The notes: a model not told the origin generated them from the letters alone. Counted from the first letter of the stretch, positions 1 through 24,234 are shown. The stretch: DNA of 64,000 bases from Candidatus Omnitrophota bacterium (GCA_043808095.1 JAZDFF010000024.1:7868-71867), one strand, 5' to 3'. Translations and numbers: made by a program.

Positions 1-155
1 ATGGCCTTTCCCGTGTCATTTAGAGTAAATATCTCTTCGTCCAAACCCGCAGCAGCAGAAGTTATTGGCACGATAATAAACTCTCCATGGATTTCTCGGG
101 CAACTACGTCTTGAGAGGGTGCATAAACAGAATCAAGATTAACTTTTAATTCCAT
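1..155 (-). CDS. PqqD-family protein (RiPP recognition element-like), partial; 3' end runs off window start
   Basis: Minus-strand ORF with ATG at 153-155, 8 nt downstream of AGGAGG (rev-comp of 164-169). Translation MELKVNLDSVYAPSQDVVAREIHGEFIIVPITSAAAGLDEEIFTLNDTGKA... matches the PqqD/RRE pattern (VxREIxGExIIVP ... LNxTG). Start overlaps the stop (139-141) of the upstream radical SAM gene, consistent with translational coupling. Confidence 0.7.
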   Translation of the reverse strand, partial: MELKVNLDSVYAPSQDVVAREIHGEFIIVPITSAAAGLDEEIFTLNDTGKA

Positions 156-1338
156 AACCATCACCTCCTGTAAAATTTTTTATCCTTTCCTTCCAATCCT
201 CTACTGTCCAAGCCATCTCTTTTTCTTTTAACAAACCCAGGTCCCTTGCTTGAGTATGAGCAAATTCACAGAGATATTCTACGGGCGTATCCAATTTACC
301 GTATTCCATCCAGGACTTGCCAGGACACTGTTCGCACAAACCCTTTAGAAAACAACGGGCACAACGGACAAGATACTCAGGATTGACAGCCTTTATTTCT
401 CTCACCCCAGGGAAGAAATTAGTTAAGGCATCTTTTAAAGATCCTTTCCTAAGATTATAAACCATATCAGGATGCCTGAGATAGATACAAGGCTGAAAGC
501 CTCCGTATGCATTAATGTAACCGCTCCTAATTCCTGAACCACAGGAAAAAAGCCTATCCCCCATAGGCCTAGTAAACCTAGAGCAGAAGATGCGCATTTC
601 ATCAATATACACTTTTCGTCTTCTGGTGAAAATCTTCAGCCCTTCCTTATGCGAAACCCTGAGTTTCTTTATTGCCTCATTCTTCTTTGTATCATCCTGC
701 CGACAGCGCAGGTTAAAAAACATGGAATACGACGGCGGCCCAGGCATCCAAGGGATAGTAGCTGCCCAGGCCTCAAATTCATCTATTTCATCTTTATTAC
801 TAGGCAAAACAGCGCCCTTGACAATAAAAGGAATCTTTTTCTCTAATAATAAATTTATACCACGCCAGGCAGCCTCAAATGAACCAGGTGTTCTGGTTAT
901 GGCTTCATATGAACTCTTCTTCATGCCATAGACCGAAACCTCCATCTTCCCCAAAGGAGGGATACAATAAAATAAATCTGCCAAATGCGGGGTAATCAAA
1001 GTAGCATTGGTAAAAATTGAAACTTTAAGCCCCTGTTTCCTGGCAAATATGTAGAGCTCCTCAAAATCCTCTCTTAAAAGCGGTTCTCCTCCGCTAAATC
1101 TGACTATAATACAGCCTAAGGAGGCTGCTTCCCTAAGGATGTCTTTTATCTCAACCTTAGAAAACTCTTTCTCCATTGCGCCTAGATCATCTTTTGGCAG
1201 ATTAATATAACAATGAATACAATTATTATTGCAACGTTCTGTAAGCTCGATATCCAGACTGCCTAAAAGCGGAAGCTTATCTTTCCATAAAGATACCTTA
1301 TCTATCCCTAATTCTTTAACGTAAGTCTTTCGTCCCAT
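139..1338 (-). CDS. radical SAM/SPASM-domain protein (putative peptide-modifying maturase)
   Basis: 399 aa. CNNNCIHC (Cx3Cx2C) radical SAM cluster near the N-terminus, with FSGGEPLL. C-terminal Cys-rich SPASM-like region (CGSG...CARCFLKGLCEQCPG). Confidence 0.85.
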   Translation of the reverse strand: MGRKTYVKELGIDKVSLWKDKLPLLGSLDIELTERCNNNCIHCYINLPKDDLGAMEKEFSKVEIKDILREAASLGCIIVRFSGGEPLLREDFEELYIFARKQGLKVSIFTNATLITPHLADLFYCIPPLGKMEVSVYGMKKSSYEAITRTPGSFEAAWRGINLLLEKKIPFIVKGAVLPSNKDEIDEFEAWAATIPWMPGPPSYSMFFNLRCRQDDTKKNEAIKKLRVSHKEGLKIFTRRRKVYIDEMRIFCSRFTRPMGDRLFSCGSGIRSGYINAYGGFQPCIYLRHPDMVYNLRKGSLKDALTNFFPGVREIKAVNPEYLVRCARCFLKGLCEQCPGKSWMEYGKLDTPVEYLCEFAHTQARDLGLLKEKEMAWTVEDWKERIKNFTGGDGYGIKS

Positions 1339-1523
1339 TATAGAAACTTCTATATCTCGTTTTAAAAAACAACAATACCATTATTATAGCCCTGGCAACT
1401 AATCATTATCATCTGTTTGTGTTAAACAAAAAGTATTCTGAACTGTTATATGAGCTTAGTCAGAAACCTAATTTTGTTTACGTTTACCCTAAGGGCTAAA
1501 AATTAAAGGTAACCAAATAATGG

Positions 1524-1721
1524 TTAAGAATCCGTAAGAGTATTGCATTTCTCGCACGACTCAATACCCAATATGCCCATACAGTCTCCTATTGAACCGG
1601 TCGCACTGATGGAAAGGGCTGCAGTTTGGTTATCACGTTTACATCTAGCAAGAATCGCCTCTGCGGGATTTCCTCTTACCAACACAATTAAGTGCGGCTT
1701 CTTCCATTTTTTCTTCTTCAT
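1524..1721 (-). CDS. small Cys-rich peptide, candidate precursor (substrate) peptide of the flanking radical SAM/PqqD/kinase genes
   Basis: 65-aa ORF co-oriented with both flanking radical SAM genes. A perfect AGGAGGTGATAGAGT-ATG Shine-Dalgarno (rev-comp of 1722-1736) precedes the ATG. Lys-rich N-terminus (MKKKKWKKPHLIVL), then a Cys-rich C-terminal third (ARCKRD...GDCMG...ESCEKCNTLTDS) ending in Ser. Confidence 0.45.
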   Translation of the reverse strand: MKKKKWKKPHLIVLVRGNPAEAILARCKRDNQTAALSISATGSIGDCMGILGIESCEKCNTLTDS

Positions 1722-1788
1722 ACTCTATCACCTCCTGTCATTAATTATCTCACCTTTTTCTATTTTCCTCAACTTCCTTTGGTCCCTT

Positions 1789-3744
1789 TCATAAACGCTT
1801 CAGTACGTCTACTACCCTGTCACTCTTGTTAAAATAAAGCCTATAACAAGGAGTCTCGCTAGACAGTCTATCTATAAGCGAAAGTGTCTTCTCCCACCAA
1901 TCAACGGTGGCAAATGGTTTTATCAGACAACTCAGTATCCTATTGGTTATTTCTTTTTTATTATCAATGGTTATTAGCCGATTTTCTTCTGACTTCTCCA
2001 AGAATAATATAGCCTTTAAAGGAGCGGAATTTCCTGAAACATCATGAACATCCCCATGGCTCCAGGTTCCATAAATTTTAAAACCGCGATGAAGTCTTCT
2101 TATAATCATACGCTCATCGCAAAGTATCTCGGCCTCGCCTTTAAGTATTGTGGCCATAGTAGATTTGCCTGCCTCAGAATGACCCACAAAAAGCAATCCC
2201 TTGCCATCAAGATTCACGCCACAGGAGTGAAGATAGCATCCCTGTCTATCAGCTAAAATTTGCGCCAAGAGTAACTGATCAGTAGGAAAAAGGGTAAGGG
2301 AATGCAGATTACCCTTCAAAAATGACTCATCTTTTTCATTGTATATCCTGGCCCTGGTGTAATCATGGTTAAATACAGCTACCTGATGAAAACCATTGTC
2401 TTTTGTAGCAGGAGAGATTCCCAGGTAGATCCAGGAGTCGTCTTTTTTATATATGGCCCAGGGTGGAGTGCGATAAACCTCCATACCTAAGTCCTGCCTG
2501 TTCAAATCAGGAAGACAAAAATGATGCTTTACGGTGATAACTTCCTCTCCCGAATCATCCACCGCAAAATTCCTAAATTTTTGATGAAAAGTAGTATCGG
2601 TTATGGGCAAATCGGATTCTAGTTGGATGGTAATATCGGCAATTCTAAAGTAACGTCGGTGGTCTTTCTTGTAGTTATCTTTGAACTTCTTATTCTCCTT
2701 TGCCACATCGCAGAGATATTCAACTTTGGCTGAGAATCTATGGTGCTCCAAATAGCCATACACCGGACACCATCTACAATCATTCCTTAGCTCGCAAGAA
2801 CCGCAATTTTCAAGATATACTTTTGTAACTTTATTTTTTTTTGCTAAAGAAGGAATAAACTCCTCCCAGCCTTCCTTAAAACTACCCTTTCTTAAGTCAT
2901 AACGAAAAGTAGAATCCTTAATAAAAGGACAGAAGCTCATCTGGCCATAAGGGTCTATATGAAAATCGCGTCTATTGGCTATGCAAGAGGCAAAGAAATA
3001 ATCATTTTTAGCCTGGCTATCGAAGTATTGTTCTGTCTTTTGCGCCACCCGATATTCATAAGACAAATCTGGGTTGTCAATCTCTATTACCTCTTCAGGA
3101 GTAAGCCTTTGTTGAATTATTTCGCTATTTATTTCCGGGACACCGCAAGACGAGAGATAGAACCAAGAAGCGCTAAACCTATAATCAGGGCTTAAGGACT
3201 TAGCTAAATCAATCATCCCCTGAAGTTGATGGTAATTATCCCTCATTGGGATAAGCTGGACAATAAAACCTACTCCTGCTTCCTTTAAATAATTCAGGCC
3301 CCGCATAGTTGCTTCGAACGAACCAGGGTTACGGGTGATATGGTCATGTACTCCAGGAATTGCGCCATAGAGAGCAACCATCTTAGACCCTTTTCTTTTC
3401 ATCAGCCGAGCGATTTCAGGAGTAATCAAAGTACCGTTGGTATTTATAGAATAGGAATTAAAATTACTGGTAAGATAATCAAAAATCGCGGGAAAATCTG
3501 GCCTTAGCATTGGTTCACCGCCAGACATAGACCATCGACGACAACCCATAATTTTGGCCTCATCCACTATTCCTTTTATCTCATCAAAGGACATCTCTTT
3601 TTTCTTTTCTTCAGAATCGGAAGGAATCCTTAACCAGCAGTGCCGACAATTATTGTTACAGCGATAGGTAAGGTCAACGCTTCCTTCAAGTGGAAGGCGT
3701 GGTAAGATATTCGTTTTCTTTATTTGAAGATAATCCTCGGCCAT
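1789..3744 (-). CDS. radical SAM/SPASM maturase fused to C-terminal HprK-like P-loop kinase domain
   Basis: 651 aa. N-terminal CNNNCRHC (Cx3Cx2C) plus MSGGEPML. SPASM-like CGSCELRNDCRWCPVYG. C-terminal region LHSCGVNLDGKGLLFVGHSEAGKSTMATIL matches the HPr kinase/phosphorylase Walker-A region ([24 protein letters not shown] pattern). Confidence 0.8.
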   Translation of the reverse strand: MAEDYLQIKKTNILPRLPLEGSVDLTYRCNNNCRHCWLRIPSDSEEKKKEMSFDEIKGIVDEAKIMGCRRWSMSGGEPMLRPDFPAIFDYLTSNFNSYSINTNGTLITPEIARLMKRKGSKMVALYGAIPGVHDHITRNPGSFEATMRGLNYLKEAGVGFIVQLIPMRDNYHQLQGMIDLAKSLSPDYRFSASWFYLSSCGVPEINSEIIQQRLTPEEVIEIDNPDLSYEYRVAQKTEQYFDSQAKNDYFFASCIANRRDFHIDPYGQMSFCPFIKDSTFRYDLRKGSFKEGWEEFIPSLAKKNKVTKVYLENCGSCELRNDCRWCPVYGYLEHHRFSAKVEYLCDVAKENKKFKDNYKKDHRRYFRIADITIQLESDLPITDTTFHQKFRNFAVDDSGEEVITVKHHFCLPDLNRQDLGMEVYRTPPWAIYKKDDSWIYLGISPATKDNGFHQVAVFNHDYTRARIYNEKDESFLKGNLHSLTLFPTDQLLLAQILADRQGCYLHSCGVNLDGKGLLFVGHSEAGKSTMATILKGEAEILCDERMIIRRLHRGFKIYGTWSHGDVHDVSGNSAPLKAILFLEKSEENRLITIDNKKEITNRILSCLIKPFATVDWWEKTLSLIDRLSSETPCYRLYFNKSDRVVDVLKRL

Positions 3745-3807
3745 TGATATTATTTATCTCTGGAACAACCTTGTAATTCCTAAAATTTGTGTTATTCTAA
3801 TACCAAA

Positions 3808-4917
3808 ATGCTGAATTTAACCAATTCTAAAGAATCAAACTTAATCTTTCTTCTTAGCCGTATAAATCTTAATCACGCTCAATTACAAGAAGCACAACTC
3901 CTTATTGATGCTAAATTTAACTGGAGAGAATTCTTCAAAAAAGCCTACCTCTTAGACATTTATCCTCTTTTATATTATAACCTCAAAAGCATATTTGATG
4001 CAAGTAAAACCTTCCCTGCAGAAATCTATTCACGTATTAAAGTCAGTTATCAATTCAATCTGGCAAATAATCTTAAACTCTGGACCGAGTTTTTACGTGT
4101 AAAGAACCAATTTAATAACATTGATATAAATCATATTCCTTTAAAAGGCATGATCTTTATCCATAGCCTCTATTCTAAATTTGGCTTAAGGTGCCTTAGT
4201 GATATTGATATACTCATAAAAGAAAATGACATATCTGCCTGTGAAAAGCAACTCATCAAGCTAGGGTATCAAAAAGAGAAATTTGTTTCCTTAGCTTACA
4301 GACAAAAATTCCATTGCCACTATTCTTTCTTTAATCCTGACAAAAAAATCATGCTTGAACTGCATTGGGCTTTTGCCCCACCCAGGCCTCGGGTAATTGA
4401 CTTAACCGAAGTCTGGCAAAGAACTAAAATCCAAGTATTCGATAATCAGCAGGTTCTGACTTTAAGTGCCGAGGATACTTTGCTTTCCTTATGCATAAAT
4501 CTTTGCTGCAATATCCCTAACTTACAATTTATTCCTTTTAAAAATTTAGTAGATATCAATGAGCTAATCTCGCAATACAAACAAAATCTAGACTTCAATT
4601 ACATCAAAGATAAACTAGTCCAATGGAAATTGAAAGGTGCTTTTTATTATCTTTATTTTCTCACCCGCTCTTACCTCGACACTCCCTGGCCAGAAGATTT
4701 TATCTCTCAGATTACTATACCGCCATTACAAAAAAGAGCCTTAAGCCTGTATCCTCTAACCCTGAAAAAGAGGTCTCAGCTCCAAGCGATAATTCTAATG
4801 TTCTTGATGCTAAGCAATTTACGCGATGTCTCAAAACTTATCTTAGCAATATCTTCTCAGACCCTCTCTATATTTATCCAAAATAAAAAACTATTTTCCT
4901 ACTATTTAAAAAGATAA
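3808..4917 (+). CDS. nucleotidyltransferase-fold protein (PF14907-like uncharacterised nucleotidyltransferase)
   Basis: GLRCLSDIDILIKEND fits the hG[GS]...DhDh nucleotidyltransferase motif. Overall N-terminal helical region resembles NTP_transf_5 proteins. Divergent from the radical SAM operon. Start is ambiguous (TTG at 3787 or ATG at 3808). Confidence 0.55.
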   Translation: MLNLTNSKESNLIFLLSRINLNHAQLQEAQLLIDAKFNWREFFKKAYLLDIYPLLYYNLKSIFDASKTFPAEIYSRIKVSYQFNLANNLKLWTEFLRVKNQFNNIDINHIPLKGMIFIHSLYSKFGLRCLSDIDILIKENDISACEKQLIKLGYQKEKFVSLAYRQKFHCHYSFFNPDKKIMLELHWAFAPPRPRVIDLTEVWQRTKIQVFDNQQVLTLSAEDTLLSLCINLCCNIPNLQFIPFKNLVDINELISQYKQNLDFNYIKDKLVQWKLKGAFYYLYFLTRSYLDTPWPEDFISQITIPPLQKRALSLYPLTLKKRSQLQAIILMFLMLSNLRDVSKLILAISSQTLSIFIQNKKLFSYYLKR

Positions 4918-5987
4918 TATGCATTATTAATCAATAATCCAAATGTCCTTAATAAAATCTTAAAATCTAAAGCCACCGATTGATTATTGATATAGTAAAG
5001 GTCGTATTCTAAATTTGCTAATATGGGCTGTTTAGTCTGCCCGCTTATCTGCCACAGGCCGGTTATACCGGGTTTAACCAGGAGTCTTTGTTTATGTACT
5101 TCGGCATAATTTTTGACAATAAAAGGCATCTCCGGCCGAGGCCCCACCAAAGACATATCTCCTTTTAAGACATTAAAAATCTGGGGTAATTCATCAAGGC
5201 CTGTCTTGCGTAAAAATCTGCCGGTTCTTGTAATTCTCGGGTCATCGTCTTTAGGCTTTGTCTCATAAATAGGCGAAGAGGCTTCCATAGTGCGGAATTT
5301 ATAGAGCGTAAACTCCCTACCATCTCTGCCTACCCTTTTCTGTCTAAATATAGACGAGCCAGGTGAATCCATCTTTATAAGAAGGATTAATAATAAAATT
5401 AAAGGAAGCATTAAAAATAAAATTAGCAACGAAATAACAATATCAGCGCTCCTCTTAAACAAGTTATATAATTTTATAGGAATTATTTCTGGTGCCTCAA
5501 TTGCACGGATTAAGTATCTTCGTATTATGAGAAACCAAGGCGCATAAAGCGAAAATAGTGAAATTAGATAATTATTAAAACGGCCTAAACCATCTTCTAA
5601 ATCGATAATCTTGCCATCATTTTCTATTCTTATCACTTTACCCAAAATATAATCTTTGGATTCTATGGGCGAATCTGTAGTTCTCCCAAGGTTGTTATCC
5701 CCTTTAGTAAACAATACAAATGATTCATTATGGTTTATTTTTTTAACTAAGCGATGAATTATCATTTTCTTATTACTAATATTCTGACAGGCAATAATAT
5801 CGCCGATTTTCGTATCTTTATAATCAATTGCCTTAATAATTACATATTCGCCATTTTTTATGGTCGGATGCATACTCCAACCTAAGGCTTTTAGCCTAAC
5901 ATTGACACCGCTCTTGAGTAAATCCGAAAATACTTCTCTAAAGATCTCTTCGCAATGCGCAGTATCTTTATCATCTATGACCAACAT
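4902..5987 (-). CDS. fusion: N-terminal S24/S26 (signal-peptidase/LexA-like) peptidase domain plus C-terminal bacterial sugar transferase (polyprenyl-phosphate glycosyl-1-phosphate transferase)
   Basis: N-terminus GWSMHPTIKNGEYVIIKA...KGDNNLGRTTDSPI resembles S26/S24 Ser-Lys peptidase boxes. A hydrophobic segment follows. C-terminus SPGSSIFRQKRVGRDGREFTLYKFRTM...DELPQIFNVLKGDMSLVGPRPE is the Bac_transf catalytic domain signature. Confidence 0.75.
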   Translation of the reverse strand: MLVIDDKDTAHCEEIFREVFSDLLKSGVNVRLKALGWSMHPTIKNGEYVIIKAIDYKDTKIGDIIACQNISNKKMIIHRLVKKINHNESFVLFTKGDNNLGRTTDSPIESKDYILGKVIRIENDGKIIDLEDGLGRFNNYLISLFSLYAPWFLIIRRYLIRAIEAPEIIPIKLYNLFKRSADIVISLLILFLMLPLILLLILLIKMDSPGSSIFRQKRVGRDGREFTLYKFRTMEASSPIYETKPKDDDPRITRTGRFLRKTGLDELPQIFNVLKGDMSLVGPRPEMPFIVKNYAEVHKQRLLVKPGITGLWQISGQTKQPILANLEYDLYYINNQSVALDFKILLRTFGLLINNAYYLFK

Positions 5988-6982
5988 ATAGGCCTCGTAT
6001 TATTATCTAAATTTTTGCTTAAATTCTTTAATTTTATCTTTATAGCCTTTCTTTTTTCTAAAGCTATTTTTAGATATCCGAAAATACGTGGAATTTTTAA
6101 AATAAGCCTTGGCCTAAATAATAAGATATAGCTCCAGAGCTTAAACTCGTAGAATAATACATTGCCTAAACAAGAGATAAAATCTTTTAGTGTATCATTT
6201 TTTATCATCGTTATATAACGGTTCTTTAAAAGATGAAACTGCAGGTCTTCTGATAGATGCGGGAAATAATATCTTCTAAGGCATTCGATATTGGGGGGCT
6301 CGGTTTTAGCTGTTGCTCCTCTTATGTGATAAGCGACAGCCTTCGGGTTATAAAATGCCTTAAAGCCGAAGCGATTTGCCCGCCAGTTAAGGTCTAGGTC
6401 TTCAAGAAACATCCCGTAGGCTGAATCAAAATATTCGCCATCAATTTTTAACATCTCAAGCATCTCTTTCTTATAAAGAGCTGCTACTGCCCCAACGCCA
6501 AAGACATATCCGGGTTCATTAAATTGGCCGTTATTAATCTCCCCAAAACCGCGTTCTTTTGCTGTTCTATCCCCAGAAAGAATCTGGCCGCAAGAATCAA
6601 TTGATTTTCCATCACGACTTAAAATTCTTCCTGTCGCCATTCCGATTTCACTATTTTTTTCAATTGTCTCTACTAATTCTTCTATGTAACATTTTTCTAA
6701 GACTGTGTCATTATTTAAAGACAGGATGTAATCACCATTTGCCTCTTTTATGCCCTGGTTCTGGGCAGAAGAAAATAACCTATTTTCATTATTAACAATC
6801 AATTTTACGAAAGGATAATCAGATTTTAAGATCTCAACGCTTCCATCGCTAGAAGAATTATCTATAACAATTATTTCAATATTTTTATAACTCTGCCTTG
6901 ATACTGAATCCAGGCAACGCCTCAAATATTCTTTTCTGTTAAAATTAACTATTATGACGGATACTGGCTTGTTCTGTTTCAT
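5975..6982 (-). CDS. family 2 glycosyltransferase
   Basis: N-terminal VSVIIVNFNRKEYLRRCLDSV and DNSSSDGS motifs are typical of GT2. Confidence 0.8.
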   Translation of the reverse strand: MKQNKPVSVIIVNFNRKEYLRRCLDSVSRQSYKNIEIIVIDNSSSDGSVEILKSDYPFVKLIVNNENRLFSSAQNQGIKEANGDYILSLNNDTVLEKCYIEELVETIEKNSEIGMATGRILSRDGKSIDSCGQILSGDRTAKERGFGEINNGQFNEPGYVFGVGAVAALYKKEMLEMLKIDGEYFDSAYGMFLEDLDLNWRANRFGFKAFYNPKAVAYHIRGATAKTEPPNIECLRRYYFPHLSEDLQFHLLKNRYITMIKNDTLKDFISCLGNVLFYEFKLWSYILLFRPRLILKIPRIFGYLKIALEKRKAIKIKLKNLSKNLDNNTRPICWS

Positions 6983-7009
6983 TTTGTTACCAACAAAGGA
7001 AACTGTTTG

Positions 7010-10000
7010 TTAAATAACCGAGTGCTCAATAATCTTATCATTATGCAAGATCAAACTTTCATACAATAGTTCCATCTGGGAGGATATTCCCTTGGAATCA
7101 TAAAATCTATCGATTACACCCCTGGCTTTTTCAGCTAAACCATTTTGGCTTAAACCGTTATTTAATATGCCTATGACCGTGTCGGAGAATTTTCCGGGCG
7201 TATCACCTATATAAACAGGATCTTCGGGCTCTATCTTTAAACCTTTGACTGACTGGCTGGTGGCAACTACGGGTATGCCCATAGCCAGGGCCTCTAAAAT
7301 CTTTACCTTAAGGCCCGCGCCTTTGCGTATGGGAGAAACTAATAATTTTGATCTTGCCAGGTAGGGTCTAACATCATCTACCTCGCCGACTATACGGATA
7401 TTCTTATCATCCTTTATTTTCTCTAAATCAATACTACCCATATTGGAGCCTATAATATGGAAATTTACCCCGGGCATTTTGCTTTTGATTAAGGGGAATA
7501 TTTTATCACAGAAATATAACAGCCCGTCGACATTGGGATAATGTAACATATGGCCTACGAACAAAATATCTATGCTTTTGTTAATATCTTTAGGCAACTG
7601 GTATGAGGCAAGATCAATGCCAATTGGGATGACAGAGATTTTGTCTGGAGACACTGCTCTTCTGGCGATTTTACGGTCCTCCTCTGTAAAGGTAACTATC
7701 TTATCGAAATAAAGATAAATCCGCTTCTGGAAAAGTACCCAATTCAACCAATCGAAAAACCGGAAAATCCTTCCGAAGGCAGGTTTTTCGTAAGAATTGC
7801 TCAGGGTATAAATACTCGTATCGTGTTCAACGAGAATTTTGGGGATATTTGGGATAAATTTTGCATAATAAGCCATGTTAGCGTATTCAATCTGGACTAA
7901 ATCTATACGATAGTCATTAAGGCAGCTCTTGATAAGGCCTGCCATCTCCTTTGCATAAAAGTATTTTATGAAGGCGGGAAGTGTCACCTTATTAAACACG
8001 CTATGCCAGGTGGGACGCCGTAAAACAGTGAAAACCTTTTTGCATAACTTGTTTAATTCTGGAATATGTCTTTCCTGATCCTGGTTTTCAATAAAGGAAA
8101 CTAAGATAATTTCATATTTATCCCTTAAACTCTTCAGTGAATTATACATCTTGATTTGGCCGCCGGACTTTAAGGGATAGGGTAAAAACGGAGTAATGAA
8201 CATGATTGTCGGTTTAGAAGATATATCTTGATTGTCATTATATTTAAAATCCTGATAAATTTCTTGAGAATTATGGAATATCTCTTTATCCGTCTTAAGA
8301 TAATAGCTCCTGTTATAGAATCTCCGGCTTAAGGCTTTCGTCAAACTACCCAAGGTCATGAAATAACCTCTTAACATAGCCTTTTTTTCGCTCTTAAGGC
8401 TAAAATATAACGGGAAGAGCAGGAAATGTTTTAAAACCAAATCTAAATCAGTAATATTTTTCCAGGTAAACAATAATTCATTTTTTACTTCGATAGAGCG
8501 GGAAAATGAACCAATGGTCCCATGCATTTTATGAAACATTAAGCTTTTTGGTTCATATATTACGCTAAAACCCATCTTTTGCGCTCTGTATGATATATCA
8601 ATATCCTCCCAGCTATAAGGCTCAAAGATATTATCAAAACCACCTAAGGCCAAAAATTCTTCTTTCAAAAAACAGGCTGCGCAACCCACGGCAAACATAG
8701 TTGACGAAGGGCTTTGGATATAAGGCGTAGCTGACACATCTTTTTCATTCCAAATATGGATATATCCATAATTAAAATCACCAAAAAAGTTGCCGTTGAT
8801 AAAGGTTTTTCTATCCCAGGCATAGAGTCTCGGACTAACAGCAAAAGTATTCTTATTTTTTAAATGGTTTATCAGATGTCCTAATGAATCTTCAGTAACA
8901 ATAATATCGTTATTTAATAAGATAATTATCTCGTTCTTTGCTTGGCCTATACCGATATTACAACTTTTGCCGAAACCCAGATTCTTCTCGTTAGAAATTA
9001 TCCTAACGCGAGGAAAATAAATCCTTAGATAGCTGGCTGTCTCGTCGCAACTGGCATCATCGACAACCAGGATCTCATTTCCAAAATCAGCCTTAAATTC
9101 CTTAGTTTTATATATTGACGACAGGCATTCCTTAAGATACTCCAGACCATTATAAGAAGGAATGACTACACTAATCTTTGATCCGGTTTCGGTTTTTCTT
9201 CCAGGTTTAGGAGGTATTTGCTTAATACTAAATAACTTCACCAATCTCCAAAGAATGCCTTCGGCAAGGAAAATTAACGCCAATAAAAAAGAAATAGGAT
9301 ATAGCAATAGAGCGAACAATAAACATACCGGCTGTGAAATATTTTTTACAGAATTATTCAAAAAGTTTCGAGTACTCAAAATCAAAGTCCATAATGGTCG
9401 CAGGACAAATCTAAATCCTTCTGAGGAATAAATGTCATTTAACTCTTTTAGTTTCTGGCTAAGAGTCTCCCGGGTTTCAATAAGCGCGGACCTTACGAGA
9501 TCTACTTCTTTTATCCTTTGTTCTAATTGAAATTTAGTTTGCAAAAGTACGGTCTTTAAAGAAACGAATTCTTTGTCTTTCTCAGAAATACTCTTTATGC
9601 ACTCTTTTATATTTTTTTCTTTAGCTAATATTTCCTTGATTAGAAAATTACTCTCAGAATTGTTAATCTTCTTTAATTCTAAGAAAATCTCATCTAAAAT
9701 ATTTTTTATATCTTCATTTTTATTATGTTTAACTAATTTAAAAATCACTTCGGGTAGAATCTGGAAAATTTTTCCGGTATGCTCTAGATGTTTACGACAG
9801 CTAAAATATCCCTTGCCAAAAAGGACTCCAGCTAAATTCTTAGGATAATGTTTGGCAACAAAAAACAATCTGTTGCGCTCTATGTAAAATTGAGAAAACT
9901 CATCACTTGCTGTTCCGTGAAAGGCATGATAAATCATACTTTCGGGTACGAATACGACCTTAAAACCTTCGTCTTTTATCCTTTTTGCCATATCCACGTC

Positions 10001-10567
10001 TTCAAAATAAATGTTAAAATCTTCATCTAAAAGACCTACCTTATCAAAAATCTCTCTGCGAAACATAACGGCTGCACCGCAAAGGCTGGACACCTCTTCT
10101 GGTTTATTATATCGACTGGCTTCTTCGCCGAATCCCCGCTCTGCCCAGTAAAAGTTCGGTAATTCAATATGTCCAGCATTCTGGATTCTGCCGTCCATAA
10201 GCAGAATTTTACTGCCAGCCATTGCGATTCTTTCATCCCTGAGCATCGCTTCCACCAAATTTATCAACCAATCTTTATCTGCCCTGGTGTCATTGTTTAT
10301 TAGAACAATAAAATCACCCTTTGCCTGCCTTATGGCCAAGTTATTAGCCTTACAGTAGTTATTAACATCATTCTGGAGTATTTTAACCTTAGGATAATTT
10401 TCTTTGACAAAACCTTGTGAACCATCCACAGAGCCGTTATCAACCATAATTATCTCTATCTTCGAATTTGGATAATTTAGTGCAAATAAAGAATCAAAAT
10501 AGTCTTTTAAGTGTTTCCTGCCGTTGTAATTCACGGTAATTACTGAAACAAAGGGATACTCTTTCAT
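7010..10567 (-). CDS. multidomain glycosyltransferase (GT2 - coiled coil - GT2 - GT4/group 1)
   Basis: 1185 aa. FVSVITVNYNGRKHL...DNGSVDGS (GT2). Central coiled-coil/TM region. ISVVIPSYNGLEYLKEC...VDDASCDET (second GT2). C-terminal EALAMGIPVVATS (group 1 GT). Confidence 0.8.
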   Translation of the reverse strand: MKEYPFVSVITVNYNGRKHLKDYFDSLFALNYPNSKIEIIMVDNGSVDGSQGFVKENYPKVKILQNDVNNYCKANNLAIRQAKGDFIVLINNDTRADKDWLINLVEAMLRDERIAMAGSKILLMDGRIQNAGHIELPNFYWAERGFGEEASRYNKPEEVSSLCGAAVMFRREIFDKVGLLDEDFNIYFEDVDMAKRIKDEGFKVVFVPESMIYHAFHGTASDEFSQFYIERNRLFFVAKHYPKNLAGVLFGKGYFSCRKHLEHTGKIFQILPEVIFKLVKHNKNEDIKNILDEIFLELKKINNSESNFLIKEILAKEKNIKECIKSISEKDKEFVSLKTVLLQTKFQLEQRIKEVDLVRSALIETRETLSQKLKELNDIYSSEGFRFVLRPLWTLILSTRNFLNNSVKNISQPVCLLFALLLYPISFLLALIFLAEGILWRLVKLFSIKQIPPKPGRKTETGSKISVVIPSYNGLEYLKECLSSIYKTKEFKADFGNEILVVDDASCDETASYLRIYFPRVRIISNEKNLGFGKSCNIGIGQAKNEIIILLNNDIIVTEDSLGHLINHLKNKNTFAVSPRLYAWDRKTFINGNFFGDFNYGYIHIWNEKDVSATPYIQSPSSTMFAVGCAACFLKEEFLALGGFDNIFEPYSWEDIDISYRAQKMGFSVIYEPKSLMFHKMHGTIGSFSRSIEVKNELLFTWKNITDLDLVLKHFLLFPLYFSLKSEKKAMLRGYFMTLGSLTKALSRRFYNRSYYLKTDKEIFHNSQEIYQDFKYNDNQDISSKPTIMFITPFLPYPLKSGGQIKMYNSLKSLRDKYEIILVSFIENQDQERHIPELNKLCKKVFTVLRRPTWHSVFNKVTLPAFIKYFYAKEMAGLIKSCLNDYRIDLVQIEYANMAYYAKFIPNIPKILVEHDTSIYTLSNSYEKPAFGRIFRFFDWLNWVLFQKRIYLYFDKIVTFTEEDRKIARRAVSPDKISVIPIGIDLASYQLPKDINKSIDILFVGHMLHYPNVDGLLYFCDKIFPLIKSKMPGVNFHIIGSNMGSIDLEKIKDDKNIRIVGEVDDVRPYLARSKLLVSPIRKGAGLKVKILEALAMGIPVVATSQSVKGLKIEPEDPVYIGDTPGKFSDTVIGILNNGLSQNGLAEKARGVIDRFYDSKGISSQMELLYESLILHNDKIIEHSVI

Positions 10568-10580
10568 AATAAATATCGGC

Positions 10581-11630
10581 TTAAATTAAATTTTGCTTCT
10601 CTATGAAATTGTAAAGGTATTCTGCTGCAATATTGTGTCCCGATAAATTGAAATGCCCGTAGGCAGGGAAATTTGTATCATTGTAAAGATGTTCTTTTGC
10701 CTCGATAACGTCGGCTAAATTACAAACGTTTTTTATCGCCAGGTCCTGATTTATAGTAAGGGCGTCTTTGCCCAAAATACCGCTTGAAATAAATTCGACT
10801 CTCTTTCTTTTCAAAAAATTGTAAATATGAGAGACATGGATCCTGTAATTATCATACCCTAACATGTAATAATACTTTTTAGGTACCTCTTCCATGGTAT
10901 TCGGCGGGTTCCACTTAACATATGTTACCTCTTCTAGGCCTGGATAAGGATAAATTAACTGTTCATGATAATACATTCCTAATATTTTTTTCTTAAAAGT
11001 TAGCCAGTACTTTCTTATTGATTTATTACTTGTTTGTTTATTTATTAATATATCAACACCTCTAAAAAAAGTATGAAAAAAATAAGATTTATTATATAGA
11101 TATTTTAGGGGCGTGATGTCCGACTTAATGTAATTGCAAATATGTGTATCATTTTCACAATATATAAGTATAACCATATCCGGATTGAATTTAATGACCT
11201 TTTCCTTAATGACCTCGAATTCCTGCGATGTATTGTATCCGGGTACTGAAAAGTTTATAACTTCAAATTTATTTGCTCGCCTTTCATTTAATAATCTTTC
11301 CAATATTTTAGGAAAGCTATTTTCACCACCCACCCCCCAGCCAAAAGACGTAGAATCACCCACCACGGCTATCCTGTAAGTCCCTAGTGGCTTATGAATT
11401 GGAAAATATCGGTCATTTAAGCCCTGGGAGTTAATCTTGGTCTTCAGAATAGGCGCGATATAACCCGGATAAAGCTCGTATACCACCCGATCATTCTTAG
11501 ATGGTCTATACCCTTGGCAATAAAGCCTTGGGTTTAGCCTTACAAATAACTCTCCCAATAGAGACAAGAATATTAATGCCGAGACTAAAATAAAAATTCT
11601 AAAAATCAATAAGGAACGCTGTTTCATCAT
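10581..11630 (-). CDS. SGNH/GDSL-family hydrolase, membrane-anchored
   Basis: N-terminal TM helix, then RIAVVGDSTSFGWGV (GDS(L) block I). Confidence 0.6.
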   Translation of the reverse strand: MMKQRSLLIFRIFILVSALIFLSLLGELFVRLNPRLYCQGYRPSKNDRVVYELYPGYIAPILKTKINSQGLNDRYFPIHKPLGTYRIAVVGDSTSFGWGVGGENSFPKILERLLNERRANKFEVINFSVPGYNTSQEFEVIKEKVIKFNPDMVILIYCENDTHICNYIKSDITPLKYLYNKSYFFHTFFRGVDILINKQTSNKSIRKYWLTFKKKILGMYYHEQLIYPYPGLEEVTYVKWNPPNTMEEVPKKYYYMLGYDNYRIHVSHIYNFLKRKRVEFISSGILGKDALTINQDLAIKNVCNLADVIEAKEHLYNDTNFPAYGHFNLSGHNIAAEYLYNFIEKQNLI

Positions 11631-11649
11631 TTAACCAAACTGTAAAAAA

Positions 11650-12630
11650 TCACCATTGCCCAGATGATGTCGTATTCAAATTCAGCACATCTTGGTCTTT
11701 AATATACCTGAAAATATTATTAGCGATTATTGAATAACCTTCTTTATTTGGATGCCAATTGTCACGCAAAAGATATTTCTTAATTGACTCCTGTTTGGTT
11801 ATCGCATTAAAAGTATCGTCATTTCGAATTAGGGGTATATTTTCTCTTGCAGCAAGCGAAATAAATTCATCGATAGAAATATAAGAATTGGAATTAATAT
11901 GATAAGTCATTAGCAAAACGCGGATGTTGCTTTTTTTTGATTCTTCGATTATATTCGAAATATCGTATCTCCACATTTTTACGAAAGAATCCTTATGAGT
12001 TATTGCAAAATCATAGATCCATTTTTGAGGTGGAAAACGAGAAAACTGGGGGAATCCTATAAAAGAATAACGATTGGCCAAGATATGCTTGGAATTTTCT
12101 TTAATAATAAATTTCAGATAAAGGAAGCGTAACATCTTAAAAGTCCTTGAGTTATTCAGCATGACTAATGATTTAATTTTCAGCGTATCGTTATCGGAAT
12201 TATTTAAAAATTTAACTACATTGCTTTCTCCTAATGACCATGCGTTATTTATCCCGGCCATCAAAATAATCAGCCCTGGTCTATACAATTTAATATAATG
12301 CTTAATCCTGTTTGAAATTTGAGAAGTATTTTGTCCGATATGGATAGGAATGATAACATTGATATCCGCATTATGATAATATTCTCTCAACTTACTTTCT
12401 AATTGCTTTGGATATGAATCCTCGAAATCAACCCATAAACCCGCGGTAGATGACTCGCCCAGACAGATAATATTTATTCCTGTATTGAATTTCCGGTCCT
12501 GGCCATCATAATAGAATTTCTTAAGATATAAATAACCTGTGATTCTTAATACTGCTTCGAAAACACAAATAGAAATAACAAAATAGAGAAAAGCCGTTTT
12601 CAGATTAGATAAAAATTTATTTTTTGACAT
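11650..12630 (-). CDS. SGNH-hydrolase-like protein, membrane-anchored
   Basis: N-terminal TM helix. IICLGESSTAGLW (GDS-like block). C-terminal DNWHPN (DxxH catalytic pair). Confidence 0.5.
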   Translation of the reverse strand: MSKNKFLSNLKTAFLYFVISICVFEAVLRITGYLYLKKFYYDGQDRKFNTGINIICLGESSTAGLWVDFEDSYPKQLESKLREYYHNADINVIIPIHIGQNTSQISNRIKHYIKLYRPGLIILMAGINNAWSLGESNVVKFLNNSDNDTLKIKSLVMLNNSRTFKMLRFLYLKFIIKENSKHILANRYSFIGFPQFSRFPPQKWIYDFAITHKDSFVKMWRYDISNIIEESKKSNIRVLLMTYHINSNSYISIDEFISLAARENIPLIRNDDTFNAITKQESIKKYLLRDNWHPNKEGYSIIANNIFRYIKDQDVLNLNTTSSGQW

Positions 12631-15600
12631 TTATAAAATTATTAACTGCCAATATATAATTTATTCTACTTTTTATTTCTTTGCCGATTACATTAAAATT
12701 AAGATTCTTCCTGACATCCTCTTGAGCAATTTTACCGACCTTTAGAGATAACTCTTTCTTTTCATAAACACATCTCATCAATTCTGCAGCATGTTGGATA
12801 TCCGGCTCTGCCCAAACCTTGCCTTTTCTGTACGGGCCGATGTCTCGATTTATATCGGTTAATCTATATTTTACAAGATAGCTATTAGAAACATTCATAA
12901 AATCGGTATTTCCGGAATAACCCGTGGCAATAACGGGTTTTCCTAAATACATTGCCTCAGCCATTGTTAGGCCAAACCCCTCCGAACGGTGCAAAGACAC
13001 ATAGGAATCGCACAAAGCCATAAGAGTGTTAATCTCTTCTTTAGTAAAATATCCTTCGATTATATTGATATTATGACCCCGCGAAACCTCGTTCATAACC
13101 TTCATTGCCGCGGGGTCAAAAGATTGATTGCAGCATTTGATAACTAATCTGACTTTTTCTAGCGGGGAAAAGGCCTCTTTAAAAGCCTTAATAACAGCAA
13201 GGGGGTTTTTGCGTTCAAAGTAGCTTAAGAAATCAAAGACAAATAGAAATATAAAATCATAATCGTTTAATCCAAAATACATCCTGTCTGCATCTTTAGC
13301 TTTATCAATCGACACAGAAATTGGCATCTTGATAACAGGAACTGGAGATTTTCTGGCAATAGCGGCAAGGCTGAAACTGCTGGGAGTCCAAATTTCATTA
13401 CAGTAGCTAAAACCTTCGAGCCATTCATCAGGAAAATCGGAAAGCTCCCAATTCCAGACTCCGATGTTATATTTATTCTCAAAATAACCCTTGCCTTTCT
13501 CCACATATAACCTTGAGAACATATCTGCGTTCACATGGATCAAATTTATATAATAGGGGTTGCTTGAAGAAAACCGGGAAAAAGAATGATCATTTTGCCG
13601 GGAATATGAATGATCAGGGATATTTAGTAAAGACACGCCGACACCTGCCTGTTCTAGGCATCTGATATTTGCCCTTGCACATTCGCCAACCCCGACTTCC
13701 GCAGTCAGATACCCCCAGATATTCACTCCTTTCGTGCTGCCTTCATCTTTAGCGTATACTGAATCTTTGGAATATAATTTAGAAAAGTTGAATACTTTTG
13801 ACCATAAACGCATCTCCATTGATTTTAGATTGCTTATCATCTTTAAGTTGTTGCGGAATAATATCTTCAAATATTTCTTAAAGAAGTTTCTGATTATATT
13901 TATAATTTTTATCCTGAGATTAACCGCCAGCACTAGCTTTCTCTCGGACTTATTAGCATAGATCTTGCTTAAAAATATGTCCTCGAGCATATATTCTTGC
14001 TTGGCGTTTAGAAAAAACCAATCTGAAAATGCCTTCCGGTGAAAATTAAATACATCAGGGTAAATGCGCTTCACATCCGGACGGCTATCATATATGCCTA
14101 ACATCAATCTTGTAATGCTGGGTTTTTTGGTATCAGCATCTTCATTTAGCCATTTCAAGAAACTATATCCTCTTGTTGTATCAAACGGATTACCAAATTT
14201 ACTCTTCAAAGCGCCGCCGGCCTCCCAATAAATTTTTCTCGCCGCATCCGGAATACTGATGCCATTGTCAAAAAACGTAAAGTGACAAGGCCAACTCCTG
14301 TTTTCCTCATACCCATGGCTCATAAGATGCTCTTTATACAGATCAAATATCGGGCTCATATGTTTTATATCTTTTAATAGGTATCTATCCTGGTGCTTGG
14401 AAATAGAGTTTATATTATCAAGCTGAACACCGCTAAAATGCAGGAAATTTACCGGTTTGTTATCGATCAAAAAGCGAGAACCTTCAATATAGACCTTTCG
14501 GTAATGAAAATTCCAATAGGCAATATTGTAACTATGGTCTCTTAATATAAAAACATCTTCAAAAAAACCGGGTATTAAATCAATCCATTTCTGGTCTACA
14601 AAAAGCCCTCTTTCAAGGTCAACTTTACAATAACGATTTAAACGTTCCTGCCACCATCTTAGTAACACCCCCGTAGAATTCTTATCGGATAAAGCGATAA
14701 AACCCAGATTATACACCCCGCTTCTTAAAATATCGCATTCATTTGGCTTGTGAGTATCTTTATAAGGCTGGGTTATATGGGGAATAAGGACTATGGAATA
14801 TTTATCTAAAAGACAGAAAAGTTCGTTAAGATTATTTGTTATTAAAATATCCGGGTCAAAGAATACGAGTTTTTTAAGGCCGTAATGCTCAAATAAAAAC
14901 TCCAAGAAAAATGGTTTTACCGCAGTATTTAGTTCCGTTAAGTTATATTGAAAACAGAATTTATCAAAATCCGGGATTTTATGCTTTATCTGGTCGACCT
15001 CGATTAAGGTAAAATTCTCTTTATTCGGGTCAAAATATCCGTCAATATAATCGGTTAATAAAACAAATACCCTGCCTTTGTTATATTTTAAGTAAGAGTC
15101 GGCTAATACGCGCGCATAGGCCAGGTAGTTTTTGGAAATTATTGTACAGATTCCAATTTGGCCGGTATCGACTCCAGGAGCCCCGACTTCCAGAGGAGGG
15201 CACGCATCTCTTGAAACTAAAAGTTCCGAGGATTTATTGCCCCTTGCTATCTGCTTAATTTCCCAGAGCATCGTCCAAAGCGGCTTCACCAAATACCTAA
15301 ACGCCGTAGAAGTATAGACATCATTCAATTCCTGCTCTCTTCTTTTTATCTGGTAACTTAAGCTATTTATATAAGTATCTTTTTCTTTAATGGCCTGACT
15401 AATATTATTTACCTCAAGGCCAAGAATATTTATGGACTGCTCTTTTTGTTGGAGTGCATTATCCAGTTTTGCTATCTGTAGATTAAGGTCTTTTAGGTTG
15501 GTCTCTTTTTCATTAATAAGTTCGCTCTTATTATTTAATTCTAAATTTACATTATTTAATTCTCGGGTAAGAACGCAGATTTCGTTATCTTTATCTTTTA

Positions 15601-17275: not shown

Positions 17276-18552
17276 GGTAAATTAATTCTCCAGCTATGTT
17301 CAAGATAAAGAATGCCGTGATCAGGTCTATCTGATATCACTTCAAAATTATAATAGCCGTTATGATAATCGTAAGCAAAGCGCTCGTCTTTCTGCCAGAT
17401 GGCAATGGATAATCTATATTTGCCCGGTAATAAATTTAGGCCTTTATATTCGATTGAAAATGATCCGTTACCAGGTTTTAACTTATCGATTTTTATGCCG
17501 TCAAACCTGGTATTTGGCCCATAACAGTATGTGCCGTCTTCTTTGAAGATGGCTACCCCGAAATGAGGGTCTTCTATTATTCTATGGGCGGTATATCTTA
17601 CTACTATCTTTGCCCTTTCGCCTGTCTTAAATATGTCCGTTTCTTCATTTCTTGTATTTAGTAATTTAACCTCCAAAATCTCGGCTTCTTTGGTTCCGAT
17701 TTTAGCCCCCCATCCTTCTTTAGGGGCTAAATTTGTTTTTTGTCCAAAATTGCTAACGACGACCGTATCAGCTGGTTTTCTCACCCGAGATTGAACAAAA
17801 ACCGGTTCTGTCTTCTTGCTCATCCGGTCCTGATAAAAACCAATAACTTCTTCTGGCAGACCTTCTTCTAAAACTCTCCCTTTTTCTAATAATACCACCT
17901 TATCGCATAATCTTTTAAGTAATTCTAGAGATTGGGAAACGAGTATCAAGGTCTTACCGGATTTTCTAAAATCGGTTAACCTCTCTAAGCATTTATTTTG
18001 AAATGAAAGGTCTCCTACGGTAAGCATCTCATCAATTAACAAAATATCAAAGTCGACATTAATAGCAATGGCAAAACCCAGGCGCATATACATTCCCGAA
18101 GAATAAGTCATAAGCGGCACATTGATAAAATCGCCTAATTCAGAAAATTCTACTATGTCTTTAAAACGCCTCTTTATCTCCCTCATCCTTAGCCCTAATA
18201 TTGAGCCATTAATATAAATATTTTCTTCTCCGGTTAATTCCGGATGAAAACCTGCCCCTAAACTCAATAAGGCAGAGACTTTGCCGTTAACAAAAATCCT
18301 GCCTTCGGTAGGGGTGGTTATCCCGGAAATTATGTTAAGAAGAGTGGTTTTCCCCGCGCCGTTACTGCCCATAATTCCTAAGGTCTCGCCTCTTTCTATG
18401 TCTAAACTTAAGTCTTTCAGGGCCCAGAATTCTTCAAAACTCTTAACCTTTAGAAACCTCGGCAATATATGCCTGACGATTGCCTCTTTCTCATGCAAAA
18501 TCACATATTTCTTGCCTATTCCAATAAACTTTACTGCAATCATTTTTACCAA
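17272..18552 (-). CDS. polysaccharide/O-antigen export ABC transporter ATP-binding protein (Wzt/TagH-like) with C-terminal extra domain
   Basis: Walker A GIMGSNGAGKTTLLN, signature YSSGMYMRLGFA, Walker B LLIDE. A ~170-aa C-terminal extension is typical of Wzt carbohydrate-binding domains. Confidence 0.85.
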   Translation of the reverse strand: MVKMIAVKFIGIGKKYVILHEKEAIVRHILPRFLKVKSFEEFWALKDLSLDIERGETLGIMGSNGAGKTTLLNIISGITTPTEGRIFVNGKVSALLSLGAGFHPELTGEENIYINGSILGLRMREIKRRFKDIVEFSELGDFINVPLMTYSSGMYMRLGFAIAINVDFDILLIDEMLTVGDLSFQNKCLERLTDFRKSGKTLILVSQSLELLKRLCDKVVLLEKGRVLEEGLPEEVIGFYQDRMSKKTEPVFVQSRVRKPADTVVVSNFGQKTNLAPKEGWGAKIGTKEAEILEVKLLNTRNEETDIFKTGERAKIVVRYTAHRIIEDPHFGVAIFKEDGTYCYGPNTRFDGIKIDKLKPGNGSFSIEYKGLNLLPGKYRLSIAIWQKDERFAYDYHNGYYNFEVISDRPDHGILYLEHSWRINLP

Positions 18553-18557
18553 CGCCT

Positions 18558-19382
18558 CTAGACTAGATCTGCAAATTCTGATTCATGTCTATTAAAAATC
18601 CAAAACCCTATAAAAAATACTGCCAAAGAGCTTACTGAGGACAAAACCGCCAAATTGAATAAGTTTAATGATCCGGGTAATGTATCTATGTAACCACCTA
18701 ATAAAACCGATCTATATAAAGTAATTATCTGGGTAAGCGGGTTTAGCATGTAAATATTGAAAAAATTGCGCGAAATGTTAAATACTAAATCCAGGGGATA
18801 AAATATAGGGGTTAGATAAAACCAAATCAGCAATAAAATCTCAACAATATATTTCACGTCACGAAACCTCACCTGCAGCCCGGAAAATATAAGGCATATT
18901 CCCGTAGTAAAAATTGTCTGTAGCAATAATACCAAAGGTAAAAGTATAACCAGATTACTTATTCTTACTCTAAAAAAAGCGAGCACCGGGAAGATTACGA
19001 TAAAAGTAATAACGAAATTAATGAAATTTGCCACGATGATTGAAATAGGAATTATCTCCCGTGGAAAATAAACCTTCTTTATAAGATTACTGTTCTCCTG
19101 TATGCTCAAGGTACATCCTGAAACAGATAGTTGAAAAAAATTCCAGGGAAAAACCGCGGTAGCTAAGAATACGAAAAACGGATAACCTTCAATTAAGGGA
19201 ATCTTAATAATAAGAGAAAAAACGATTTTAAAAACCAGGATTATGGCCAATGGCACAATCAGGGCCCAGAGAATTCCCAGGATAGGATGCTTATATCTAA
19301 ACTTTATCTCTTTATAAGCTAGCCTAAGAAGCAACTCATGATGCGCAAATATTTCCTTAATTTGTTTTAATATCTCTGGCAT
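18558..19382 (-). CDS. ABC-2 type transporter permease (Wzm-like)
   Basis: ~6 predicted TM helices, adjacent to and co-directional with the Wzt-like ATPase. Confidence 0.75.
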   Translation of the reverse strand: MPEILKQIKEIFAHHELLLRLAYKEIKFRYKHPILGILWALIVPLAIILVFKIVFSLIIKIPLIEGYPFFVFLATAVFPWNFFQLSVSGCTLSIQENSNLIKKVYFPREIIPISIIVANFINFVITFIVIFPVLAFFRVRISNLVILLPLVLLLQTIFTTGICLIFSGLQVRFRDVKYIVEILLLIWFYLTPIFYPLDLVFNISRNFFNIYMLNPLTQIITLYRSVLLGGYIDTLPGSLNLFNLAVLSSVSSLAVFFIGFWIFNRHESEFADLV

Positions 19383-21896: not shown

Positions 21897-21990
21897 TTAA
21901 TGAACGGATGCAAACTGATTTTAGCGGATGTAAACGGATTAAATTTTATCCGTGAAATCCGTAACTATTCGTTTGAATCCGTGATTAAAT
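21897..21990. promoter_or_regulatory. array of six ACGGAT/ATCCGT half-sites around a central palindrome AACGGATtaaattttATCCGT, upstream of the UGM-like gene
   Basis: Direct copies at 21904, 21924 (gcggat) and 21934. Inverted copies at 21948, 21957 and 21977. Spacings are multiples of ~10 bp. Confidence 0.55.
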
Positions 21991-22016
21991 ATCTTAAGTT
22001 TTTAACCTGAATAATT

Positions 22017-24133: not shown

Positions 24134-24234
24134 GTAAAAATTATTGATTGCAGTGATTTTGTAAAGAAGATTTCAGTGATTAATACTTCAATCACCGGAA
24201 TCTATTTTATAATCACAGTAATCATCTTCATTTT

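Follow-up and report, generated by a model that had tools for sequence, protein, structure and literature searches.

Genes at the locus

This analysis concerns a gene cluster at the left end of a 64,000 nt stretch of DNA from Candidatus Omnitrophota bacterium (GCA_043808095.1 JAZDFF010000024.1:7868-71867), the whole of which is called the window here and is numbered from its first letter. The cluster encodes two radical S-adenosylmethionine (rSAM) enzymes of the SPASM type, one of them fused to an HprK-like ScmC domain, together with a PqqD-family protein, a small peptide and a divergently transcribed enzyme of nucleotidyltransferase fold. It is interpreted below as probably specifying the maturation of a peptide that is made on the ribosome and post-translationally modified (RiPP). 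The features are as follows.

1..155, minus strand: PqqD-family protein (RiPP recognition element, RRE), N-terminal 51 codons; the remainder lies beyond the left edge of the window
139..1338, minus strand: rSAM/SPASM enzyme, here RS2, 399 aa; PF04055, CNNNCIHC motif
1524..1721, minus strand: predicted precursor peptide, 65 aa; AGGAGG site, 243 homologues, family motif
1789..3744, minus strand: rSAM-ScmC fusion, 651 aa; two domains
2650..3744, minus strand: N-terminal rSAM/SPASM domain of the fusion (about residues 1-365); PF04055, CNNNCRHC motif
1789..2649, minus strand: C-terminal ScmC domain of the fusion, with HprK/PEPCK-like P-loop (about residues 366-651 plus the stop codon)
3787..4917, plus strand: enzyme of nucleotidyltransferase fold, 376 aa; PF14907, D-x-D motif SDIDIL
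4902..5987, minus strand: S24/S26-type peptidase-like domain (about residues 1-170) fused to a Bac_transf polyprenyl glycosylphosphotransferase; PF02397, TIGR02228

The gaps between the fusion gene and the small open reading frame (ORF) and between the small ORF and the RS2 gene are 67 bp and 185 bp, respectively, the RS2 and PqqD genes overlap by 17 bp, and the PF14907 gene diverges from the fusion gene at a distance of 42 bp from the start of the latter. An AGGAGG has its end separated by 9 nt from the ATG of the small ORF. An earlier first-pass annotation had described this gene order, the gaps and the overlap, the AGGAGG and the divergent nucleotidyltransferase gene, all of which are in the sequence as stated. 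A terminator scan revealed no attenuator 3′ of the precursor gene. Translation of the PqqD fragment starts MELKVNLDSVYAPSQDVVAREIHGEF... The window cuts the cluster; nowhere in its 64 kb is there a third rSAM enzyme of the kind present in relatives (RS3), an exporter-type ABC transporter or a second precursor, and the remaining part of the operon must lie in the 8.4 kb or less of contig outside the window.

A family of precursor peptides

The 65-aa peptide has a leader of approximately residues 1-28, ending with C27-K28, and a core, residues 29-65, that contains C47, C56 and C59 and has S65 at its C-terminus. The first-pass annotation called the ORF Cys-rich; the ORF is real, and with 4 Cys in 65 residues the wording was generous. 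The peptide has no match among Pfam and NCBIfam models. With a profile made from four copies, 243 small proteins were obtained, 54-91 aa in length; none of them has a Pfam label, and those named at source are only ‘hypothetical protein’. One of them, P0124, is 100% identical to the window peptide and is the NCBI hypothetical protein V1674_03925 of a Candidatus Omnitrophota metagenome-assembled genome.

For the leader, whose family consensus is KKKWxKPKLIVLVRGxPEEAVLxxCK, pairwise identity averages 0.55; for the core the figure is 0.24. Conservation in the core is of its architecture: the last residue of 202 non-redundant cores is Ser in 175 and Thr in 25 (99% Ser/Thr), exactly three Cys are present in 162, the last two Cys are spaced by 2 or 3 residues in 167, and exactly six residues follow the last Cys in 166. 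The resulting motif, C-x(4-11)-C-x(2-3)-C-x5-[ST], is matched by the window peptide as C47-x8-C56-x2-C59-x5-S65. Ser plus Thr make up approximately 21% of core composition.

The position of the precursor gene varies, being upstream of the fusion gene, between the fusion and RS2 genes as in the window, between the RS2 and PqqD genes, or after the RS3 gene, and the number of copies per locus ranges from 1 to about 12. Near the upper end of this range is L014, one of the related loci (cited here by number), where 11586..19221 holds some 11-12 precursor genes with differing cores interleaved with enzyme genes.

The cluster in related loci

Related loci were assembled from Pfam-labelled contexts, and 170 fetched loci were annotated with our own hidden Markov model (HMM) searches; a well-flanked set consists of the 56 unique loci for which no less than 3 kb upstream and 6 kb downstream was available. 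The usual order is fusion, RS2, PqqD, S24-like peptidase and RS3, with the ABC exporter and PF14907 genes placed variably. Across the 56 loci a PqqD gene and RS3 are each present in 56, the precursor and RS2 in 55, the S24-like protein in 53, and the ABC exporter and the nucleotidyltransferase in 33 each. Because the profile has 243 homologues, and because a member is present in 55 of the 56 well-flanked loci, the small ORF is not a chance ORF; it is, on the evidence of sequence, predicted to represent a genuine and previously unannotated precursor family with leader/core architecture. Orthologous clusters devoid of a conserved small ORF had been named in the first-pass annotation as what would speak against its view of the locus as an uncharacterised RiPP-like maturation system, and the 55 of 56, with their leader and core, support that view instead. 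Its inventory of genes was right for those it listed and incomplete: in relatives there are also an S26-like peptidase, a third rSAM enzyme and, in many cases, an ABC exporter.

The record titles of genomes with the fusion include Omnitrophota, Thermodesulfobacteriota/Syntrophorhabdia, Acidobacteriota/Aminicenantes, Chlorobiaceae, Victivallales, Margulisiibacteriota, KSB1 and Chloroflexota. These approximately eight phylum labels are the record titles themselves, some of which derive from co-assembly bins and may be unreliable.

Of 80 sequences of S24-like proteins, 78 have a GxSMxP motif and, after it, an HR motif, which is the Ser/His signature of signal peptidases of the endoplasmic reticulum (ER)/archaeal type, and these S24/S26-like proteins of relatives also match TIGR02228. 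In L013 (6788..7738), L023 (5904..7118) and others the slot between PqqD and RS3 is occupied by a protein of 320-400 aa that is weakly signal peptidase I-like and replaces the usual S24-like protein of approximately 170 aa. The exporter of relatives is of the HlyB/MsbA type and, because its HlyB alignment begins at model position 137, is taken to be without a C39 peptidase domain.

Cysteine number and enzyme number

Loci in which ScmC stands alone were obtained by a metagenome scan with an alignment of 8 stand-alone ScmC sequences and by a look-up from the peptide side (L085). Those that have only RS2 and RS3 encode two-Cys cores in 10 of 10 precursors (8 distinct sequences), and in fusion loci 120 of 162 cores have three Cys and 10 have two (Fisher p = 3e-9 for fusion state versus Cys number, uncorrected for phylogeny). 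In L169 and L129 both arrangements are present, and so are both peptide types. As fusion state and Cys number covary, the comparison suggests that there is one rSAM paralogue per Cys, and that the fused rSAM domain would act on the additional Cys in the C-x(2-3)-C pair.

Four loci, L169, L129, L158 and L107, combine a fused rSAM-ScmC set with a stand-alone ScmC set, and most of them encode both 2-Cys and 3-Cys precursors.

Two things are new here: a precursor family whose C-terminal architecture is strict, and the way in which the number of enzymes covaries with the number of Cys. Cassettes of the ScmC type, which have so far been in-silico database systems, are now tied to a defined precursor family under some eight phylum labels, and two rules follow that are testable: that the rSAM count tracks the core Cys count, and that a C-terminal Ser/Thr is obligatory next to the kinase-like domain. 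The cluster is accordingly a good lead for genome mining.

Domain support for the enzymes

Both window rSAM enzymes match PF04055 Radical_SAM, RS2 with 72.8 bits and the fusion with 84.9 bits, and have the CxxxCxxC core. The seven SPASM cysteines of the fusion (C254, C272, C314, C317, C323, C326 and C345) are invariant across 34 orthologues, the window rSAM alignments to NirJ2 and MftC are full length, and the RS3 orthologue of relatives scores above the PF13186 cut-off (25.8 versus 21.5 bits). By itself the 51-aa PqqD fragment has no match to a Pfam or NCBIfam HMM. It scores 75 bits against an HMM made from the orthologous PqqD proteins of L001, L002 and L004, and the L001 orthologue has 52 bits for PF05402 with a cut-off of 23.4; the fragment is clearly the N-terminus of orthologues that pass PF05402. 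The window nucleotidyltransferase matches PF14907 with 154 bits.

Of the domains proposed in the first-pass annotation, therefore, PF04055 and PF14907 are borne out directly, and the SPASM, HprK_C and PqqD assignments, for which the window sequences are below cut-off, are supported by way of orthologues and structure.

The product of 4902..5987 has 216 bits for PF02397 and 63 bits for TIGR02228, archaeal-type signal peptidase I, for which the cut-off is 51.85. Its N-terminal domain carries GWSMHP and HR motifs and aligns over its full length with the S24-like proteins of L001 and L004 at 29-37% identity (E 3e-13 and 6e-15).

The best NCBIfam matches of the three rSAM paralogues, at 88-110 bits, are AhbD, NirJ2 and NirJ, and so a cofactor or heme-type role for the rSAM/SPASM enzymes, AhbD/NirJ-like, with the small ORF merely incidental, deserves mention. 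We regard it as exceedingly improbable. These scores are far below the cut-offs, which are 500 or more, heme or siroheme genes are absent nearby, all 56 loci have a PqqD RRE and 55 of them a member of the precursor family, and the Cys count of the precursor covaries with the enzyme count.

The ScmC domain and its fusion

For the C-terminal 286 residues of the fusion the best NCBIfam match is ScmC, TIGR04249 (E 1.4e-8), followed by HprK-related kinase B and HPr kinase; the score for TIGR00679 HPr kinase is 21.8 bits with a cut-off of 240. Precomputed Pfam labels of orthologues are PF04055 and PF27840, ‘ScmC’. An AlphaFold2 model of the domain, from 68 sequences, has a predicted local distance difference test score (pLDDT) of 96.7 and a predicted template modelling score (pTM) of 0.91, and the fold matches that of HprK; it is an HprK/PEPCK-type P-loop fold in which the Walker A motif is present. 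A profile search of Protein Data Bank (PDB) sequences with the domain finds HprK (E 2e-4 over 62 residues), and matches to ABC transporters are confined to the P-loop. The P-loop and a CDDR motif are almost invariant in the ScmC family.

ScmC occurs in a fused form of about 650 aa and in a stand-alone form of about 290-320 aa. The fusion has more than 120 full-length homologues of 64-70% identity, mostly from Omnitrophota, and is present in at least 178 GTDB species genomes, with the best match among GTDB representatives being 70% identical. The number of ScmC-matching clusters is 5,624 at E <= 1e-3 and 171 at E <= 1e-30. The rSAM-ScmC fusion is thus neither rare nor unique, stand-alone ScmC is common, and Pfam already models ScmC, so that the novelty claimed for an rSAM-kinase fusion in the first-pass annotation was overstated.

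Proposed pathway

Starting from gene content, conservation, precursor architecture, ScmC fold and the covariation of Cys and enzyme number, which are established directly, we infer every chemical step of the following scheme. The cluster probably specifies, by analogy with known systems, a RiPP pathway in which each Cys has its own rSAM enzyme, the C-terminal Ser/Thr receives a phosphate from ScmC, and this phosphate may be decorated by the PF14907 enzyme. Given the known role of its family, the PqqD-family RRE would probably bind the Lys-rich conserved leader (KPxLIVLVRG...EAxLxxCK). Each of the three core Cys would be modified by one enzyme, these being the fusion's N-terminal half, RS2 and the off-window RS3, as the covariation suggests, with thioether-type crosslinks the most likely products; the type of bond is a guess. 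Next, the ScmC domain would most likely use a nucleotide triphosphate to phosphorylate the hydroxyl of the C-terminal Ser/Thr, on the analogy of PadeK and PsmK. The PF14907 enzyme, found in approximately 60% of related loci, may then add a sugar or nucleotide to the phosphate, as PsmN does. The signal-peptidase-like protein of ER/archaeal type (Ser/His), which in the window is fused to a sugar-phosphate transferase, is a candidate leader peptidase, and the C39-less HlyB/MsbA-type ABC transporter presumably exports the product.

A number of observations weigh against this scheme. To our knowledge neither a product nor an enzyme activity has been reported for any member of this family. Because the window begins inside the PqqD gene, the third rSAM enzyme, the separate peptidase and the exporter are unseen for this genome, and in relatives the nucleotidyltransferase and the ABC exporter each have no counterpart within 10 kb in approximately 40% of the 56 loci. 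The SPASM model TIGR04085 gives 21.9 bits for RS2 and 22 bits for the fusion with a cut-off of 27, and PF13186 matches neither. The C-terminal domain has 14 bits for HprK_C PF07475, below the cut-off of 33.3, and the full-length fusion, modelled with AlphaFold2 from a shallow alignment, gave a poor structure (pLDDT 55.9) that was not used. Ten two-Cys peptides occur in fusion loci, so that the rule relating Cys and enzymes is not strict, and the test of that rule is uncorrected for phylogeny and has a small stand-alone sample. The likeness of the window nucleotidyltransferase to PsmN is by description, as the paper in question speaks only of an uncharacterized NTP transferase. Finally, the cut-offs of the nearest named system, SynChlorMet (SCM), are missed: for ScmC TIGR04249 the window domain has 34.5 bits and the stand-alone L085 protein 42.5 with a cut-off of 125, for ScmD TIGR04248 the L001 PqqD orthologue has 29.9 with a cut-off of 100, and the rSAM paralogues score 61-91 bits, at most 83 for ScmE and at most 91 for ScmF, where the cut-off is 400 for each.

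A further point of this kind lies in the motif after the P-loop, which is CDER in the window ScmC domain and CDDR in 152 of 166 distinct relatives, with 12 unscorable. The difference is a conservative change at a near-invariant acidic position, and the CDER/CDDR site may correspond to the catalytic Asp of HprK. This atypical CDER, and the scores of ScmC below the curated HprK cut-offs, would be in keeping with the same RiPP system operating without a C-terminal kinase. The terminal Ser/Thr would then be an acceptor or anchor for an rSAM macrocycle (a thioether from Cys sulfur to a Ser/Thr carbon, ranthipeptide-like) or a recognition element, and ScmC would act as a chaperone or scaffold that depends on ATP, or as a kinase for some other Ser/Thr in the Ser/Thr-rich core. 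In 166 of 202 cores the last Cys lies at a fixed distance from the C-terminus, which speaks for this reading, as does the Ser plus Thr content of about 21%, and Cys-to-Thr thioethers are known from the rSAM/SPASM maturase CteB. We consider this unlikely. The P-loop and the acidic motif are kept as in an active enzyme, the partner is often a PF14907 enzyme as in phosphorylating lasso-peptide clusters, and a C-terminus that is Ser/Thr in 99% of cores fits the only substrate need known for the HprK homologues of lasso peptides (PMC8498205).

To C-terminal phosphorylation by ScmC, the reading we prefer, a stronger and more tentative proposal can be added, which is possible and yet rather doubtful. 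The clusters would define a new RiPP class in which each core Cys has a dedicated rSAM/SPASM enzyme, the C-terminal Ser/Thr is phosphorylated by a fused kinase domain and the phosphate is glycosylated or nucleotidylated by the PF14907 enzyme, with the Omnitrophota product maybe tied to an envelope-glycan pathway. If true, this would be the first rSAM-crosslinked peptide with C-terminal phosphoester decoration, and would supply the missing precursor type for ScmC/SynChlorMet-like cassettes. Phosphoester tailoring, so far known from lasso peptides, could thereby extend to radical-SAM-crosslinked peptides of largely uncultured anaerobes.

Relation to known systems

In lasso peptides the C-terminal Ser of the precursor is phosphorylated by a homologue of HPr kinase that has few other demands on the sequence (PMC8498205, PMC6993621), and the C-terminal phosphate receives one or two hexoses from PsmN, which has a D-x-D motif and is described as an ‘uncharacterized nucleotidyltransferase’ (PMC6993621). 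The first-pass annotation had invoked C-terminal Ser phosphorylation in lasso peptides as precedent; the two papers confirm it, and the Ser/Thr ends of 99% of cores lend it added support. The clusters for paeninodin (PadeK) and pseudomycoidin (PsmK, PsmN) resemble the present one in having an HPr-kinase-like enzyme and a nucleotidyltransferase beside a precursor ending in Ser. Lasso precursors must end in Ser, and the cores here end in Ser/Thr in 99%. They differ in that core modifications here would be introduced by rSAM/SPASM enzymes and in that the kinase-like domain here is ScmC-type, with 14-22 bits for HprK models. Neither the genes examined in window 1..25026 nor the gene tables of L001-L005 and L085 include a lasso cyclase resembling Asn synthetase, and a lasso-peptide identity was rejected because of this. 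The only B2-like signal is a weak Transglut_core match beside the nucleotidyltransferase in L004/L005, possibly a B2-like protease.

The nearest named system is the in-silico SCM cassette (ScmC TIGR04249, ScmD TIGR04248, ScmE TIGR04250, ScmF TIGR04251). Both have an ScmC-type HprK-like protein, a PqqD-family protein and paralogous rSAM/SPASM enzymes. Here, in contrast, ScmC shares a polypeptide with an additional rSAM enzyme, the third, the cluster comes with an S26-like peptidase, an ABC exporter and PF14907, and a precursor family can be recognised, whereas the SCM description identifies none. The stand-alone versions are also below the SCM equivalog cut-offs. Since all four of these cut-offs are missed widely, the cluster is not an SCM member at the NCBIfam level, and it is predicted to work like an SCM cassette.

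More distant is the relation to HPr-rel-A and GeoRSP, which the first-pass annotation had named; by score the closest named family is the ScmC of SynChlorMet. HprK_rel_B (27.6 bits), HprK_rel_A (15.6), GeoRSP_rSAM (40-57) and geo_PqqD (21.5) all give weak matches, far under cut-offs of 100-400 bits and weaker than the match to ScmC. With sactipeptide and ranthipeptide systems (AlbA, PapB, CteB) the cluster shares rSAM/SPASM maturases with an RRE, Cys-containing cores and leader/core architecture. The scores are 49-55 bits for AlbA with a cut-off of 850 and about 49 for PapB with a cut-off of 340. Other differences from those systems are that the RRE here is a separate PqqD protein, that there are three dedicated paralogous enzymes instead of one, that one of the domains is kinase-like, and that the C-terminal Ser/Thr is invariant.

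Searches of full-text literature returned nothing on SynChlorMet, on ScmC with radical SAM, on SPASM with HprK or on TIGR0424x or PF27840 accessions, and nothing relevant on HPr kinase with radical SAM, PqqD or RiPP, or on HprK-related kinase; for PF14907 only a phosphonate paper was returned. A survey of biosynthetic gene clusters in Omnitrophota and a paper on RiPP mining in anaerobes contain nothing specific on this cluster.

The adjoining glycan locus

The cluster adjoins a glycan locus of approximately 18 kb, co-directional on the minus strand at 5975..24133. It contains genes for GT2, multidomain glycosyltransferases of 1185 and 1552 aa, two GDSL lipases, a Wzt/Wzm ABC transporter, Wzy_C, a flavin amine oxidase, GT4 and GT1. 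The fusion of a peptidase-like domain to Bac_transf at 4902..5987 is in none of approximately 160 related loci, where the peptidase-like protein stands alone.

This neighbourhood raises the thought that the peptide is a component of the cell envelope and not a free natural product that is secreted; the PF14907 enzyme or the adjoining sugar-phosphate transferase would glycosylate its C-terminal phospho-Ser, and the peptide would in this way be joined to the polysaccharide of the glycan locus or prime it. In its favour are the adjoining Bac_transf, GT2, giant multidomain glycosyltransferase, Wzt/Wzm, Wzy_C and GT4 genes, the peptidase-like domain fused to Bac_transf, and the ability of PsmN-type enzymes to attach hexoses to phospho-Ser; L001, L002, L004 and L085 also carry glycosyltransferases, three of them with Poly_export, Wzz/GNVR or Wzy genes as well. 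The fusion to Bac_transf is, however, unique to this window, and a dedicated ABC exporter in 33 of 56 loci suits a secreted peptide. We judge an envelope role very improbable. Because crude polysaccharide-gene markers match only 11 of 81 loci, association with glycan genes is not general, and a family-wide link to polysaccharide loci was rejected.

One Omnitrophota relative, represented by L002/L003, has inserted in its cluster (9988..12152) a gene for a GNAT acetyltransferase and a 23S_rRNA_IVP-labelled gene with a weak bAvd match. Diversity-generating retroelements have a four-helix-bundle accessory protein that the bAvd-like protein resembles; in the gene table of L002/L003, which reaches approximately 8 kb to the left and right of the fusion gene, no reverse transcriptase is present.

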